From Escherichia coli (lineage in GTDB: Bacteria > Pseudomonadota > Gammaproteobacteria > Enterobacterales > Enterobacteriaceae): 5,153 bases of DNA. Position numbers and translations under genes: made by a program. This document shows, in pieces, positions 1 through 5,153 of the stretch; the first letter of the stretch is position 1, and each line of letters starts with the position of its first letter. The notes beneath the pieces are model-generated. The model searched no databases. It was not told the DNA's origin and worked only from the letters and a program-made list of their open reading frames with translations. The stretch lies in NCBI RefSeq assembly GCF_013315695.1, contig NZ_CP054358.1. One strand, given 5' to 3'.

Positions 1-53
1 CATCCAACAAGGAGGTTTATAGCGAATATTCCCACAAAAAATCTTTTCCTCAT
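1..53 (-). CDS. kil: Colicin release (lysis) lipoprotein Kil, 5-prime portion: start codon at 53..51, 17 codons plus 2 nt before the window edge; continues at 5153..5069
   Basis: Reverse complement of 1..53 translates to MRKRFFVGIFAINLLVG followed by TG, which with the complement of base 5153 completes a Cys codon, giving a lipobox L-V-G-C. This N-terminus matches the ColE1 Kil protein as I remember it. A Shine-Dalgarno AAGGA (complement of 61..65) sits 7 nt upstream of the ATG. The gene lies downstream of cea and imm on the cea strand, as in pore-forming colicin operons. Confidence 0.85.
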   Translation of the reverse strand, partial: MRKRFFVGIFAINLLVG

Positions 54-100
54 AACTCGATCCTTATAAAATGAAAAGAATATATAACGAGGTTTAATTT

Positions 101-442
101 ATGAGTTTAAGATACTACATAAAAAATATTTTGTTTGGCCTATACTGCGCACTTATATATATATACCTTATAACAAAAAACAACGAAGGGTATTATTTCC
201 TAGCGTCAGATAAGATGCTATACGCAATAGTGATAAGCACTATTCTATGCCCATATTCAAAATATGCTATTGAACACATATTTTTTAAGTTCATAAAGAA
301 AGATTTTTTCAGAAAAAGAAAAAACCTAAATAATGCCCCCGTGGCAAAATTAAACCTATTTATGCTATACAATCTACTTTGTTTGGTCCTAGCAATCCCA
401 TTTGGATTGCTAGGACTGTTTATATCAATAAAGAATAATTAA
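101..442 (+). CDS. imm: Colicin E1-type immunity protein (inner-membrane protein, 113 aa)
   Basis: The 113-aa product [34 protein letters not shown]... is very hydrophobic with about three predicted transmembrane segments, and matches the ColE1 immunity protein as remembered. It is antisense to and convergent with cea; the stop codons overlap (cea ends at 439, imm at 442). GAGG at 90..93 lies 7 nt before the ATG. The gene is markedly AT-rich compared with its neighbours. Confidence 0.93.
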
Positions 443-2004
443 ATACCCAACACCTCATTTATAGTATTAAGTTTATTCTTATCAATAAAGGCACATAGAA
501 TGCCTGTAACAATAGCAATCCCCCAGATACCTAATGTAGTTCCAGCAAGCACACTAAAAAGTAAAACAACAACATAACTAACTCCAGCATCTACAGCTTT
601 CTTCTCTAATGTAAGAAATAGCGGCTTCCAGTCACCTGTATCCTTAATTTTTAGGATATCAGATACCACATCATATCCAAAAGAAACATGTCCCGTAATC
701 TTCAAGTACTTGGCAAACTGATCTAAATGCTTAGCCCAGTCTTCATACTTAACCGCCTCCAGTGCATTGAAAATTGCATCACGGTCTGCTTTGCTGAATT
801 TCTTATTTAATACATCCTTGTATTTCTCAAAAGCAGCTAGAGCTTCATTCACATTGCTGATTTTCTTACCTTTAGATTTATCAGCAAGTTCCTGTGCCAT
901 TTTTGAATATTTTTCACCATATTTTTCAGATAGCGTTTGATAAAAGCTAACTGTTGCATCCACAGCATCCTTAATCTGCGAGTTCAGGAGATTAGTCTGT
1001 GCTGTTTTCAAATTATCTTCAGCATCATGAATACGTGAAACTGCTGTACTTCGCTTATTATTAGCCTGAGAAATAGCCTCTTGGATTCCATTTATCTCAG
1101 AGCTAATCTGGTTAAGACGCGTTTCTGATGCTGTTACCTGCTTTTGTTTTTCCTCCATCTCATCACCAGCTCTCGCCCGTAGTCTGGTGGCCTCAAAAAA
1201 AGGACGACTCTGAAGCGGATCATTCGCCCTAGGAGATAAAAGTTTAACCCTTTCATCCAGTTCTTTATATTTAGCAGATGCCTGATCCAACTCATTTCGT
1301 TTTCCGGACAGCGTATTCGTTTCTGCATCACGGGCATGAATACTGGAGCTTAAACGGGTATTGAGCGTATTAATCTCTTCATCCACTTTCGCCAGCTCAG
1401 ATTGTGCAGCAGCAAGATTTTTTTGTGCCACCTCCACAGCCCGGGCCTCTTCACTCAATGCTGCCAGGCGTTTCTCTTCATCCTCAGCCAGTTTCAATTG
1501 GCGTTCTGTTTCAGCCTGCTCCTTCTCTATCTCTTTACGTCGTTGTTCTGCTTCCTGAAAAGCCTTTTCCGCAGCTTCCGCTTCTTTACGGGCTTTTTCT
1601 TCTGCTTTTGCAAGGCGCAACCGCTCTGCTTCTGCCTGCATCGCTGCATTATTGGCATGAGCCAGGTCAATAACCTCCGGATGAGTGGAATTATGGCGAA
1701 GCGCCTCATTCACAATATCCTTCAGATGTTGAGTCAGCGCATCCCGGTTTGCTTTCGCTTTAGCCTGTGCTTCTGCGGCAGCTTTTGCTCGGGCAGCCTG
1801 TTCTGCCTGCGTTTTCTTCAATTGAGCAGTAGACCATTTAGCTGTGGCATGAATGGCTGCAGAACTTTCACTTTTGCTACCTCCAGTTCCACCACCACCG
1901 CCAGAGCCACTCCCGTCTGGATTACCATTCAAAAGAGTAATGATTACCTGCCCCTTATCATCATAAGGAACACCATCTTTATAGTACGCTACAGCTGTTT
2001 CCAT
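439..2004 (-). CDS. cea: Pore-forming colicin, colicin E1 type (521 aa): glycine-rich N-terminal translocation region, central coiled-coil receptor-binding region, C-terminal channel-forming domain
   Basis: Product begins [27 protein letters not shown]...[18 protein letters not shown] and ends ...[47 protein letters not shown] (hydrophobic hairpin of the channel domain). It is collinear with colicin E1 (522 aa) from memory, with scattered substitutions. AGAGGA precedes the ATG. The promoter with LexA boxes is immediately upstream. Confidence 0.96.
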
Positions 2005-2051
2005 TATAAAATCCTCTTTGACATTAAAAACAAATAGTTAAAAGCAATATA

Positions 2052-2082
2052 CTGTATATATAATCACTGGTTTTATATACAG
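2052..2082 (-). promoter_or_regulatory. Twin overlapping LexA (SOS) boxes of the colicin operon
   Basis: Read on the - strand: CTGTATATAAAACCAG (complement of 2067..2082) and GTGATTATATATACAG (complement of 2052..2067). Both are close to the CTGT-N8-ACAG consensus. They lie between the -10 hexamer and the cea start, as in ColE1. Confidence 0.8.
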
Positions 2083-2086
2083 TTTA

Positions 2087-2115
2087 AAATTACGCCGCTG
2101 CATTTTCCCTGTCAA
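2087..2115 (-). promoter_or_regulatory. sigma70 promoter of the cea-kil operon (-35 TTGACA at 2115..2110, 17-bp spacer, -10 TAATTT at 2092..2087)
   Basis: Reverse complement of 2086..2116 reads TTGACAGGGAAAATGCAGCGGCGTAATTTT. This is a perfect -35 with a 17-bp spacer, and the predicted start site falls inside the LexA boxes. Confidence 0.75.
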
Positions 2116-2263
2116 CCCTGTGGATTTTCATTTTTGTGAAAACGATCAAAAAAACAGCCACCCACACCACGTGCTATTTCCACCCGATGCCACAAAAACC
2201 AGCACAAACATTACCGTTCTCAGACCTCATTATGTTTTACTGAAACCATGAGATGAGACACCT

Positions 2264-2701
2264 ATGGGACACTGTAACTTTATGGCATGGCACACACTCC
2301 GGGACGCACTGAAAATGACTGGAAGATCGCGTTCACAGTTTTACCGTGATATGCGCTCAGGTCTTGTCAGTTACCGTACCAGCCAGGACGGACGACGGGA
2401 GTTTGAAACCAGTGAACTGATCCGGGCATACGGCGAATTAAAGCGGAATGAGACACCAGAAAGGCACACTCAAGGACACTCAGAAAAACCTCATGATCAG
2501 CAGACAGAACGCATTCTCCGGGAACTGAATGAGCTGAAACAATGCCTGACGCTGATGCTTGAGGATAAACAAGCCCAGGATACGGAGCGCCGGCGCCAGG
2601 AAGCAGAACGGAAACAGCTACAGAATGAGATAGCCCAGCTCAGGCAGGCTCTGGAGCAGGAAAAGAAACGGGGATTCTGGTCCAGGCTGTTCGGTCACTG
2701 A
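2264..2701 (+). CDS. Hypothetical DNA-binding protein (145 aa): N-terminal AlpA/Xis-like helix-turn-helix followed by a charged coiled-coil segment; function unknown
   Basis: Intact 145-aa ORF in otherwise uncrowded DNA. Residues around 9-55 (WHTLRDALKMTGRSRSQFYRDMRSGLVSYRTSQDGRREFETSELIRAY) fit the excisionase/AlpA-type HTH pattern (L..a...tG.SRS..Yr....G......gg.r.f...e). The C-terminal part (ERRRQEAERKQLQNEIAQLRQALEQEKKR) is a heptad-like coiled coil. The ribosome-binding site is weak (GAGA upstream of the ATG at 2264) and the true start could be an internal Met, so the start is uncertain. A relationship to the entry-exclusion region reported for ColE1 is possible but I cannot confirm it from memory. 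Confidence 0.6.
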   Translation: MGHCNFMAWHTLRDALKMTGRSRSQFYRDMRSGLVSYRTSQDGRREFETSELIRAYGELKRNETPERHTQGHSEKPHDQQTERILRELNELKQCLTLMLEDKQAQDTERRRQEAERKQLQNEIAQLRQALEQEKKRGFWSRLFGH

Positions 2702-2781
2702 ACGCGCTCAGAAACTGATGATAAGATAATCTTCGGATAATAACTCACCGAGAATAAATACTTTAAGGTAGGGAGACACTC

Positions 2782-3201
2782 ATGAGACGTACCGGAAACA
2801 AACTTTGTCTTATCGCCATGATAACAGCAACAGTAGCTCTCACAGCCTGTACCCCAAAGGGCAGCGTGGAACAACATACCCGGCATTACGTATATGCTTC
2901 TGATGACGGTTTTGATCCCAACTTTTCCACCCAAAAAGCCGACACAACACGAATGATGGTGCCTTTTTTTCGGCAGTTCTGGGATATGGGAGCTAAAGAT
3001 AAAGCGACAGGAAAATCACGGAGTGATGTGCAACAACGCATTCAACAGTTTCACAGCCAGGAATTTTTAAACTCACTCCGGGGCACAACTCAATTTGCGG
3101 GTACTGATTACCGCAGCAAAGACCTTACCCCGAAAAAATCCAGGCTGCTGGCTGACACGATTTCTGCGGTTTATCTCGATGGCTACGAGGGCAGACAGTA
3201 A
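2782..3201 (+). CDS. Predicted lipoprotein (139 aa; signal peptide with lipobox L-T-A-C, mature protein about 116 aa, Thr at +2), function unknown; candidate surface/entry-exclusion-type protein
   Basis: Strong Shine-Dalgarno AGGGAG (2770..2775) 6 nt before the ATG. The N-terminus MRRTGNKLCLIAMITATVALTAC has a positively charged n-region, a hydrophobic core and a lipobox Cys. The mature part is hydrophilic with no catalytic motif I can recognise. The stop codon (3199..3201) lies 5 bp from the XerD arm of cer. Confidence 0.75.
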   Translation: MRRTGNKLCLIAMITATVALTACTPKGSVEQHTRHYVYASDDGFDPNFSTQKADTTRMMVPFFRQFWDMGAKDKATGKSRSDVQQRIQQFHSQEFLNSLRGTTQFAGTDYRSKDLTPKKSRLLADTISAVYLDGYEGRQ

Positions 3202-3205
3202 GTGG

Positions 3206-3235
3206 ATTTACCATAATCCCTTAATTGTACGCACC
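3206..3235 (-). other. cer: cer-type Xer site-specific recombination core (XerC arm, 8-bp central region, XerD arm)
   Basis: Reverse complement of 3206..3235 is GGTGCGTACAATTAAGGGATTATGGTAAAT, matching the ColE1 cer crossover core from memory (XerC site GGTGCGTACAA, central TTAAGGGA, XerD site TTATGGTAAAT). Confidence 0.85.
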
Positions 3236-3335
3236 ACTGAAACGCGCTGAACGCGATTCTGACGCAGACACCGCAAAAAGAGATGTTTTACCCCGGAAAA
3301 ACAGGAAGGATGCGTCAGGATCGTTTTCAGCTCTC

Positions 3336-3349
3336 TGCATAGCTATGCA
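3336..3349. promoter_or_regulatory. Candidate ArgR box within the cer accessory sequences
   Basis: Perfect 14-bp palindrome TGCATAGCTATGCA at the distance from the Xer core where the cer ARG box lies. Assignment is by position and symmetry only. Confidence 0.5.
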
Positions 3350-3425
3350 TGAAAGCGAATGGTGATCACTTTGGGAGCTTACGGTGTTCATACCGTCAGT
3401 TTTCGACAGTTTTCTCTCCGGGAAG

Positions 3426-3773
3426 CTAATCTGCCATAAGCCTGGATAACAGGGCACGGTGATACTCCGTAATAGCGATCAGCACCTCCGCATACTCCCT
3501 GTCCCCGACACGCTTGCCGTCGATAAAGAGTTTTTTCTGTAACGCCCCCAGTCTCATAACTTCTTTCAGTACCCGATCATCAGTCAGTGAGTTAACTTTC
3601 TTACCGAGAGCTGCCGCCCGTAAAAAACCGGAAACGGTCTTGCCGCATTCAGCAGCCCTTTTTCTGATTTCCTGGTCTTCTTCTGCCGTCAGACGAACAG
3701 GGCGACTGATAGCCCGCCTGCGCGTATTACTTCCACTTCGTTTTGTCATAAAACATGGCTCCGTATCTGACAT
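3426..3773 (-). CDS. mbeC: Mobilisation (relaxosome accessory) protein of the MobC/MbeC family, ribbon-helix-helix type; alternative start at 3749 gives 107 aa
   Basis: Product ...RRRAISRPVRLTAEEDQEIRKRAAECGKTVSGFLRAAALGKKVNS...LGALQKKLFIDGK... has the MobC-family signature (R.VRLT.EE...I...A...G.SVS.F.R..ALG). GGAG (complement of 3759..3762) sits 9 nt upstream of the internal ATG at 3749, so that may be the true start. The oriT-like region is immediately upstream. No relaxase gene follows. Confidence 0.85.
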   Translation of the reverse strand: MSDTEPCFMTKRSGSNTRRRAISRPVRLTAEEDQEIRKRAAECGKTVSGFLRAAALGKKVNSLTDDRVLKEVMRLGALQKKLFIDGKRVGDREYAEVLIAITEYHRALLSRLMAD

Positions 3774-3900
3774 GGGTGTCGGGGCAAAGCCCTGACCAGG
3801 GTAATTGTAATAGCGTGCATGTATGCGCGGTATAACAATTACACATCCTGTCCTGTCAGCAAGTTCGAATTACCGACAAAGGCACGGCAGTTTTTTGGCA
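3774..3900. other. oriT/bom-like region (origin of transfer) upstream of mbeC, with inverted repeat 3801..3812 / 3831..3842
   Basis: GGGTGTCGGGGCAAAGCCCTGACCAGG (3776..3802) resembles the start of the pBR322/pMB1 bom region (GGGTGTCGGGGCGCAGCCATGACCCAG) as remembered. It is followed by the inverted repeat GTAATTGTAATA ... TATAACAATTAC, a typical oriT hairpin. The nick position is not determined. Confidence 0.5.
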
Positions 3901-4032
3901 GTGACAGTATTGTCAGGCAGAAATACCCGTCAAAGCGTCAGACGGCAGAATACCGGCGGTAAAACAGTCGAAAAGTGGTACGCGATATAATCACACAACG
4001 CAGATGACAGACAGAACGGAGAAAACGAAAAG

Positions 4033-4227
4033 ATGAACAAGCAGCAGCAAGCCGTACTCAACATGGCAGGATTCATAAAAAGCCAAAGCCTGACGCTGCT
4101 CGAAAAGCTGGACGCACTCGATGCTGACGAACAGGCTACCATGTGTGAGAAGCTGCACGAACTCGCAGAAGAACTCCAGAACAGCATCCAGACACGCTTT
4201 GAAGTAGAAAATAGCACAGAGAGATAA
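4033..4227 (+). CDS. rom: Rom/Rop (RNA one modulator), 64 aa, four-helix-bundle regulator of the RNA I-RNA II kissing complex
   Basis: MNKQQQAVLNMAGFIKSQSLTLLEKLDALDADEQATMCEKLHELAEELQNSIQTRF... aligns along its length with pBR322 Rop (MTKQEKTALNMARFIRSQTLTLLEKLNELDADEQADICESLHDHADELYRSC...). GGAG precedes the start; the gene is adjacent to oriV and oriented towards it. Confidence 0.9.
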   Translation: MNKQQQAVLNMAGFIKSQSLTLLEKLDALDADEQATMCEKLHELAEELQNSIQTRFEVENSTER

Positions 4228-4868
4228 CGCTCAGGACAGGATACCGAACGGCACAACAGAGCGTAAGGAGAAAATGTCACATAAGGCGCTCTTCCGCTTC
4301 CTCGCTCACTGACTCGCTACGCTCGGACGTTCGACTGCGGCGAGCGGTGTCAGCTCACTCAAAAGCGGTAATACGGTTATCCACAGAATCAGGGGATAAA
4401 GCCGGAAAGAACATGTGAGCAAAAAGCAAAGCACCGGAAGAAGCCAGCGACGCAGGCGTTTTTCCATAGGCTCCGCCCCCCTGACGAGCATCACAAAAAT
4501 CGACGCTCAAGCCAGAGGTGGCGAAACCCGACAGGACTATAAAGATACCAGGCGTTTCCCCCTGGAAGCTCCCTCGTGCGCTCTCCTGTTCCGACCCTGC
4601 CGCTTACCGGATACCTGTCCGCCTTTCTCCCTTCGGGAAGCGTGGCGCTTTCTCATAGCTCACGCTGTTGGTATCTCGGCTCGGTGTAGGTCGTTCGCTC
4701 CAAGCTGGGCTGTGTGCACGAACCCCCCGTTCAGCCCGACCGCTGCGCCTTATCCGGTAACTATCGTCTTGAGTCCAACCCGGTAAGACACGACTTAGCG
4801 CCACTGGCAGCAGCCGTTGGTAACTTGGTTAGCAGAGCGATGATGGCGCAAATGGTGCAACAGAGTTC

Positions 4869-4898
4869 TTGAAGTAGTGGCCCGACTACGGCTACACT
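4869..4898 (+). promoter_or_regulatory. RNA I promoter (-35 TTGAAG, 18-bp spacer, -10 TACACT)
   Basis: Hexamers positioned as in pMB1; the RNA I start at about 4905 lies 7 nt downstream of the -10. Confidence 0.6.
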
Positions 4899-4904
4899 GG
4901 AAGG

Positions 4905-5012
4905 ACAGTATTTGGTATCTGCGCTCTGCTGAAGCCAGTTACCTCGGTTAAGCAGTTCCCCAACTGACTTAACCTTCGATCAAACCGCCTCCCCAGGCGG
5001 TTTTTTCGTTTA
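4905..5012 (+). ncRNA. RNA I (antisense copy-number control RNA, about 108 nt)
   Basis: Starts ACAGTATTTGGTATCTGCGCTCTGCTGAAGCCAGTTACC, identical to the 5-prime end and stem-loop 1 of pMB1 RNA I. Ends in a stem (CCGCC 4985..4989 / GGCGG 4996..5000) followed by TTTTTT. -35 TTGAAG (4869..4874) and -10 TACACT (4893..4898) are upstream. Confidence 0.85.
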
Positions 5013-5020
5013 CAGGCAGC

Positions 5021-5049
5021 AGATTACGCGCAGAAAAAAAGGATCTCAA
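5021..5049 (-). promoter_or_regulatory. RNA II promoter (-35 TTGAGA at 5049..5044, 17-bp spacer, -10 TAATCT at 5026..5021)
   Basis: The complement of GGATCTCAAG...AGATTACGCG gives TTGAGA and TAATCT, the same elements as the pBR322 RNA II promoter. Confidence 0.7.
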
Positions 5050-5060
5050 GAAGATCCTTT
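5034..5060 (-). terminator. Hairpin plus short U-run just downstream of the kil stop; candidate terminator of the cea-kil transcript, overlapping the RNA II -35 region
   Basis: Arms AAAGGATCT (5038..5046) and AGATCCTTT (5052..5060) with a 5-nt loop. On the - strand the hairpin is followed by TTTT (complement of 5034..5037). The kil stop is at 5071..5069. Confidence 0.4.
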
Positions 5061-5068
5061 GATCTTTT

Positions 5069-5153
5069 CTACTGAACAGAGATCCCCGTCAATTTAGAAG
5101 AAGATGATGGAGCCACAGTCCCTCCCTGAACATCACGTATATAGTTAGCCTGA
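5069..5153 (-). CDS. kil: Colicin release (lysis) lipoprotein Kil, 3-prime portion (residues about 18-45 plus stop at 5071..5069); joins 1..53 if the molecule is circular
   Basis: Reverse complement of 5153..5069, in the frame set by bases 2..1, reads (C)QANYIRDVQGGTVAPSSSSKLTGISVQ then TAG. This is a near-exact continuation of the ColE1-type lysis protein, giving a 45-aa lipoprotein overall. Neither the ORF track nor a linear gene finder can see it because it is split by the window boundary. Confidence 0.8.
   Translation of the reverse strand, partial: QANYIRDVQGGTVAPSSSSKLTGISVQ

Follow-up and report, generated by a model that had tools for sequence, protein, structure and literature searches.

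The minus-strand segment at 3206-3420 is, judged by its sequence, a cer-type plasmid multimer-resolution site whose dependence on Xer, ArgR and PepA is assigned by homology. It lies in a window of 5,153 nucleotides, the whole stretch of DNA that was analysed; elements of its kind are already known, and the plasmid family has been sampled extensively. We consider it probable that this non-coding, mosaic site makes no canonical Rcd RNA from a promoter homologous to that of ColE1. The preliminary description of this DNA had held that the accessory region probably encodes Rcd, a reading for which the sequence gives no support at the level of "probably".

The window is a complete small colicin plasmid (5153 bp, pSS046_spB type), 99.9% identical end to end to dozens of 5153-bp records from E. 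coli and Shigella, including Shigella sonnei Ss046 (NC_009346). Its layout was drawn from reading of the sequence together with open reading frames, Rfam, Pfam and public annotations, as follows.

101-442, + strand: colicin immunity gene
439-2004, − strand: E1-like pore-forming colicin
2264-2701, + strand: exc1
2782-3201, + strand: exc2
3426-3773, − strand: nikA/mobA relaxase accessory gene, NikA-like (Pfam E = 3.5e-18; public annotation)
4033-4227, + strand: rom
4907-5009, + strand: RNAI of the ColE1-type origin (Rfam, 87 bits)

The nikA gene lies directly upstream of the accessory region on the same strand, and a nikA transcript would run into it. In identical plasmids the colicin release (lysis) gene occupies 5069-5153 joined to 1-53 on the − strand, coordinates that were derived from the 135-base offset of an identical plasmid's record. 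Since this gene is cut by the window ends, the window is a circular permutation of the plasmid.

The elements of the resolution site, and the open reading frame that crosses it, are these.

3206-3216, − strand: XerD-binding half-site TTATGGTAAAT, read directly, same as in ColE1 cer
3217-3224, − strand: central (crossover) region of 8 bp, TTAAGGGA, read directly, same as in ColE1 cer
3225-3235, − strand: XerC-binding half-site GGTGCGTACAA, read directly, same as in ColE1 cer
3336-3349: ArgR box TGCATAGCTATGCA, a perfect 14-bp palindrome aligned with the ColE1 ArgR box
3350 to about 3420, − strand: distal accessory arm, placed by homology to sites of the same lineage
3221-3457, − strand: open reading frame of 78 aa with a GTG start, spurious

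Read from 3235 to 3206 on the − strand, the core is GGTGCGTACAA-TTAAGGGA-TTATGGTAAAT and is identical to the core of ColE1 cer, its 8-bp central region falling within the 6-8 bp that separate the half-sites in cer-type sites. TGCATAGCTATGCA is the sole ARG-box-like match (TGMATWNNWATKCA) in the window; chance would give 0.01, and one turned up in 3 of 200 shuffles. It stands 100 bp from the XerC site, a single box at about 100 bp being the criterion for a cer-type site. The accessory region, found on the XerC side only, runs from 3236 to about 3420 (approximately 185 bp, the typical length for cer being about 180-200 bp). Homology with cer-like sites starts at the core; BLAST follows it to about 3386 in plasmids lacking nikA, and in one more distant site it can be traced by eye to about 3420, so that 3236-3420 is a reasonable delimitation; its distal arm (3350-3420) is presumed, by analogy, to be contacted by PepA. 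The site reads from accessory region to core on the − strand, the same direction as RNAII, which must lie on the − strand because RNAI is on the + strand. This accessory-to-core orientation along RNAII has been reported for all ColE1-like plasmids (PMC2831885). Core, ArgR box, spacing, orientation and homology thus all fit the cer-type accessory region of expected length that had been placed at 3236-3420. The preliminary description had also pointed to a central palindrome at 3336-3349 as a sign of Rcd; the palindrome is present at exactly those coordinates but does not speak for Rcd, since it is the ArgR box.

By analogy with cer, two directly repeated copies of the site would synapse in a plasmid dimer, with ArgR on the palindromic ARG box at 3336-3349 and PepA wrapping the flanking accessory DNA (3236-3335 and about 3350-3420). 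The interwrapped complex would limit XerC/XerD strand exchange at the core (3206-3235, with its 8-bp central region) to one molecule, and exchange within the dimer would restore monomers.

The 78-aa frame is, on comparative grounds, an artefact and not a gene, and the accessory region is accordingly read as non-coding. It had been described as spanning the Xer core together with the accessory region; it does include the XerC half-site and part of the central region, where its stop codon TAA lies (3223-3221), but not the whole core. Translated in the register of the window ORF, the frame is broken by stop codons in 14 of 19 window-type sites, most commonly by a stop directly after the ArgR box (IAMQ*), and in several sites it is shifted relative to nikA. 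The DNA features are kept in these same sites, and it is this comparative evidence that tells against a gene. The frame has no Pfam match, and no CDS is annotated over the accessory region in two records of the identical plasmid (PGAP, GenBank) or in 14 diverse relatives, with PGAP making no 78-aa call in any of them. The earlier judgement that the ORF is non-coding therefore holds, given the stops in relatives, the lack of a Pfam match and its absence from the RefSeq records of the same plasmid. A real small protein at 3221-3457 (−) would have in its favour an SD-like GGAG 7 nt upstream of the GTG and the deposition of the exact 78-aa sequence as an "uncharacterised/hypothetical protein" (Shigella sonnei), in a 74-member cluster and on at least 1000 contigs. 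These deposits, however, were called automatically and never reviewed, and many are "partial" where a contig ends. The frame also runs over the XerC site, the ArgR box and the 3′ end of nikA; we find a genuine protein here scarcely credible. Automated callers do report this frame, and the resulting "hypothetical protein" entries are artefacts; the proper label for the segment is Xer multimer-resolution site with ArgR box, not CDS. Public records of the plasmid also carry short "hypothetical protein" or "replication initiation protein" CDSs in the RNAII/origin region, at 4415-4786 (+), 4714-4872 (+) and about 4355-4510 (−), which lie across the primer RNA and are probably spurious ORFs as well.

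Any verdict on Rcd depends on where Pcer and its transcript lie in ColE1. Rcd is induced in plasmid dimers, binds tryptophanase and raises indole. Its gene lies inside cer and the RNA measures about 70 nt (PMC4393325, PMC4493468, PMC5357621); the literature describes it as one long stem-loop. It is transcribed in the RNAII direction, along which RNAII read-through reaches the ArgR/PepA region before XerCD (PMC2831885), and mutations in Pcer or rcd leave recombination unaffected (PMC4393325, PMC4493468). The −35 and −10 elements of Pcer are separated by 15 bp (PMC5935869), a conserved 15-nt sequence lies within Rcd (PMC5935869, citing Sharpe 1999), and Rcd has been regarded as something that cer-like sites have in general (PMC2831885, PMC5935869).

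The standard promoter/terminator scan, which allows spacers of 16-18 bp only, returned no match in the window or in ColE1 cer; given that restriction it is blind to Pcer, and it was replaced by our own hexamer scan. Pcer is an atypical, regulated promoter whose activity is not readable from sequence alone. Its hexamers were therefore inferred here, as TTGCAT-15-TAAAAT, from the published constraints combined with a hexamer scan of ColE1 cer, in which two pairs spaced by 15 bp tie at 8/12 consensus matches. The rival pair, TGAACG-15-TACAAT, is situated in the ColE1 XerC site, and its transcript would begin in the core and exit cer; as Rcd is encoded within cer and Pcer mutations leave recombination intact, TTGCAT-15-TAAAAT was taken as Pcer. 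The chosen pair overlaps the ArgR box in ColE1, the left half of the box coinciding with the −35 element, and a 2001 study by Chatwin and Summers reportedly agrees with this assignment. A transcript from it would extend from about 3827 to the T run at 3905 of NC_001371 (77-79 nt), and the ColE1 RNA folds as one long stem-loop (−36.4 kcal/mol, z = −5.5). We identified the 15-mer GGGTGGTTTGTTGCC as the Rcd motif, given that its one- and two-mismatch variants fit the 93.3% and 86.7% identities in PMC5935869. At 3836-3850 the NC_001371 record itself carries a 1-base deletion (GCGCAG against GCGGCAG; TTTTTAGGG against TTTTTCGGG) that sets it apart from every other ColE1-type site sampled. Within rcd, this difference may reflect either an error of the old sequencing or a variant private to this record.

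Cer-like sites for comparison were gathered by a genome scan with the core pattern, by BLAST against PLSDB and from 23 fetched records. The genome scan returned 11 loci, mostly small-plasmid contaminants in unrelated assemblies, which were used as extra sequences. Identical cer cores with E. coli-type plasmid sequence occur in assemblies labelled Hymenobacter, Streptomyces, Bacillus, Rhizobium, Collinsella and others, most likely through laboratory or sample contamination. A metagenome scan with a 14-base lineage-specific pattern gave 120 loci, made up of 118 chance matches and 2 duplicates of known variants, and added no diversity. One 7.6-kb metagenome contig harbours a ColE1-type and a window-type site in the same orientation about 2.4 kb apart (approximately 2740-2885 and 5100-5260). 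Its ColE1-type site is complete, with TAAAAT and the 15-mer kept and a different core, TTAAGATA-TTACGTTAAAT.

Across this collection the segment between the ArgR box and the XerC site falls into two classes, ColE1-type and window-type (NTP16/pMUT1), which account for 2489 and 857 PLSDB plasmids respectively; about one in four of the cer-like sites detected in PLSDB thus has the window-type arm. The elements of the window that correspond to Pcer and Rcd by position are the following.

3324-3329, − strand: TGAAAA at the position of the inferred Pcer −10, with A at position 2 and T at position 6 absent
3311-3323, − strand: 5′ arm CGATCCTGACGCA of a long inverted repeat, 13 pairs with one C·A mismatch in the window
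3281-3295, − strand: register equivalent of the Rcd 15-mer, reading CGGGGTAAAACATCT, with about 4/15 identical in ungapped register
3254-3266, − strand: 3′ arm TGCGTCAGAATCG of the same long inverted repeat, placed where the Rcd stem has its 3′ arm
3240-3255, − strand: small G+C hairpin CGCG-TTCAG-CGCG followed by TTT, beside the XerC site, present in both lineages and paired by RNAalifold

The geometry is the same in both classes: the TGCAT hexamer stands 15 bp from the −10 position, which in turn is 87-88 bp from XerC (88 in the window). In the window the −35 position is occupied by ATGCAT at 3345-3350, made up of the distal half of the ArgR box plus base 3350. The −10 itself differs. It reads TAAAAT in 12 of 13 ColE1-type sites and TAACAT in the remaining one, against TGAAA[A/G] in all 20 window-type sites (20/20), where both key bases are lost. 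Our hexamer scan of the − strand between the ArgR box and the hairpin revealed no sigma-70-like promoter with A2/T6 and at least 7/12 matches, and inspection by eye for sigma-32, sigma-E, sigma-54 and sigma-28 promoters near TGAAAA gave no convincing match. Nearly invariant among ColE1-type sites, the 15-mer GGGTGGTTTGTTGCC has no match anywhere in the window, even when up to 3 mismatches are tolerated. From the ArgR box to the XerC site about half of the columns are identical between ColE1 and the window, by a manual count on one alignment. In this alignment to ColE1 cer, the comparison that the preliminary description had named as the way to locate Pcer and Rcd, the Pcer/Rcd segment is not conserved.

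The two classes also differ in structure. The ColE1-type stem comprises 17 pairs, 91% paired, with 8 compensatory changes and a covariation of 0.42 against 0.22 in shuffles (0/500 shuffles); together with the 15-mer and the −10 it serves as the positive control for a conserved Rcd. The window-type stem has 13 pairs, 1 compensatory change and 2 conserved mismatches, with 85% of cells paired against at most 37% when the arms are slid. The CTGACGC core of its 5′ arm is invariant throughout the lineage, and changes in the 3′ arm are mostly uncompensated. With 17 distinct sequences at 89% mean column identity the window-type sample has little depth, so its scant covariation counts as weak negative evidence. 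RNAalifold assigns −37 kcal/mol to the ColE1-type alignment and −13 kcal/mol to the window-type one. Within the window, a repeat search recovered a 21-nt, 86%-complementary pair (3246-3266 / 3311-3331), and the − strand from 3318 to 3240 folds with −24.8 kcal/mol (z = −2.6), modestly better than shuffles; the inverted repeat is real but modest. The hairpin beside XerC is terminator-like but weak, with a T run of 3-4 bases and a score below the threshold of the terminator scan, which placed no terminator between nikA and the core.

A covariance model built from ColE1-type Rcd sites scores its own members at 74-107 bits and window-type sites at 12.6-33 bits. Its best match in the window is the positional homologue at 3236-3333 (−), with 14.5 bits and E = 0.058. 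Neither the window nor the cer region gave a relevant match in Rfam, a result that is uninformative because Rfam has no Rcd family, and the ColE1 rcd control likewise went without a match. The earlier claim that this region probably encodes Rcd is not borne out, given TGAAAA at the −10, the missing 15-mer and 14.5 bits against 74-107.

The hairpin loop reads in opposite orientation in the two lineages: CGCG-CTGAA-CGCG in ColE1 (NC_001371 3889-3901) and CGCG-TTCAG-CGCG in the window (3243-3255) and NTP16, with CTGAG and CTCAA as other loop variants. The difference looks like a hairpin inversion. Inversion of the whole inner segment relative to ColE1 was considered and rejected, as the T tracts and flanks align directly and the covariance model matches the − strand only.

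The site is most closely related to nmr of NTP16 and to the mrs found in the pCERC7 group of nikA-bearing plasmids (pMUT1, pOSAK1-size plasmids, pU302S). NTP16, pU302S and pCERC7 form a group of small plasmids sharing NikA and oriT (PMC9282650), and the title of Moran and Hall 2017, as cited in PMC10272864, speaks of variable segments beside the multimer resolution site in the pCERC7 group. In NTP16 a window-type site lies directly after the nikA/mobA gene. The accessory arm of the window is 95% identical to that of NTP16, and arm, nikA, oriT and replication region together show 95-98%; over most of this region, BLAST gives 99.6% identity between the window and plasmids of 3173 bp, the size of pMUT1. 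The site of pMUT1 is annotated simply as "Cer" (PMC10859263), and papers on pMUT1 hold no transcript data for the cer region. Shared by the window and the NTP16/pCERC7-group sites are the ArgR box, TGAAA[A/G], the CTGACGCA arm and the hairpin. The core, in contrast, is GGTGCGCGTAA-TGAGACG in NTP16 and the ColE1 core GGTGCGTACAA-TTAAGGGA in the window, and beyond it the window has ColE1-like colicin/exc DNA in place of lsoAB.

Towards ColE1 cer the likeness takes another form. The core and the flanking exc2 end are identical, the distance of the ArgR box, the spacing and the orientation relative to the origin are the same, and the T tracts and terminal hairpin fall in the same alignment columns; TAAAAT and the Rcd 15-mer, however, are missing from the window, and its long stem is shorter and weaker. 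Considered as an RNA, the window segment resembles ColE1 Rcd in strand and position, with the 5′ arm a few bases past the −10 position and the 3′ arm just before the small hairpin. It differs from it in lacking a recognisable promoter, in an unrelated loop sequence, in its low covariance-model score and in its scant covariation.

Identity to NTP16 is 95-98% over 3230-4825, and identity to ColE1 is 90-95% over 1-3257 and 4256-5153. The ColE1-like part comprises the core and everything on its exc2 side, while accessory arm, nikA, oriT and rom are NTP16-like. With a ColE1 core and exc DNA beside an NTP16-like arm, the site reads as a hybrid whose junction falls at the core or adjacent to it. The plasmid as a whole is, by these comparisons, a natural mosaic whose parents meet at the XerC half-site and hairpin (3230-3257), a junction that suggests that the exchange took place at the Xer site or next to it.

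Were a working Pcer present at the homologous position, the region would yield an Rcd orthologue that, in cells containing dimers, stimulates tryptophanase and delays division. Positional homology and identical geometry fit this, as do the ATGCAT at the −35 position, which matches some ColE1-type sites, the inverted repeat where the Rcd stem should be and the hairpin with its T run ahead of the XerC site. The best covariance-model match in the window is moreover the expected segment on the expected strand, and the view of Rcd as common to cer-like sites (PMC2831885, PMC5935869) would extend to this one. Against these stand the loss of both critical −10 bases throughout the lineage, the absent 15-nt motif, a model score far from the lowest member (at least 74), stem changes that are mostly uncompensated and the want of any alternative sigma-70-like promoter between ArgR box and hairpin. 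We accordingly regard a conserved Pcer/Rcd here as unlikely. That an inverted repeat and a hairpin persist is better accounted for by conserved architecture of the site, or by their being remnants.

A divergent Rcd-like RNA might also arise by another route, for example from nikA read-through processed or terminated at the 3243-3255 hairpin. Such a small RNA would derive from a 3′ UTR, would differ in its loop and might differ in its target. That nikA (ending at 3426) lies directly upstream on the same strand with no terminator scanned before the core is compatible with it, and so are the folding of the segment as a closed stem plus 3′ hairpin and the invariance of CTGACGC in the 5′ arm. The argument is purely inferential, though; covariation is weak, the invariant bases could equally be protein-contact or architectural DNA, and a T run of 3-4 bases after the hairpin is short. 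We hold this route to be very unlikely. More broadly, it seems improbable that the NTP16/pMUT1-type arm encodes a divergent Rcd-like RNA by whichever means, be it a non-canonical promoter or processing of nikA read-through; such an RNA would share the stem-and-hairpin layout and may have an unrelated loop and a target other than tryptophanase. A resolution site of conserved architecture that yields no canonical Rcd is the reading we prefer.

Cer-like sites evidently comprise at least two accessory-arm lineages, and a strongly conserved −10, the 15-nt motif and a covarying stem occur only in the ColE1-type. An rcd or Pcer feature should therefore not be transferred from ColE1 to NTP16-type sites by position alone. 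Plasmids of NTP16 type include pMUT1 of E. coli Nissle and small plasmids of Shigella and O157; if they do lack Rcd, the dimer checkpoint would not be universal among ColE1-family plasmids. Alternatively, should it be true that a large lineage is stably inherited without the Rcd checkpoint, the checkpoint would be dispensable.

Two minor observations concern the nikA side of the site. On the + strand at 3403-3437, in the distal accessory arm, there is a weak sigma-70-like TCGACA-18-TAATCT (8/12, chance level) directed antisense toward the nikA 3′ end. Inverted repeats near 3790-3850 look like an oriT and adjoin nikA in a region (3426-3850) from which the relaxase gene is absent; transfer of this plasmid group relies on a helper I-complex plasmid (PMC9282650).
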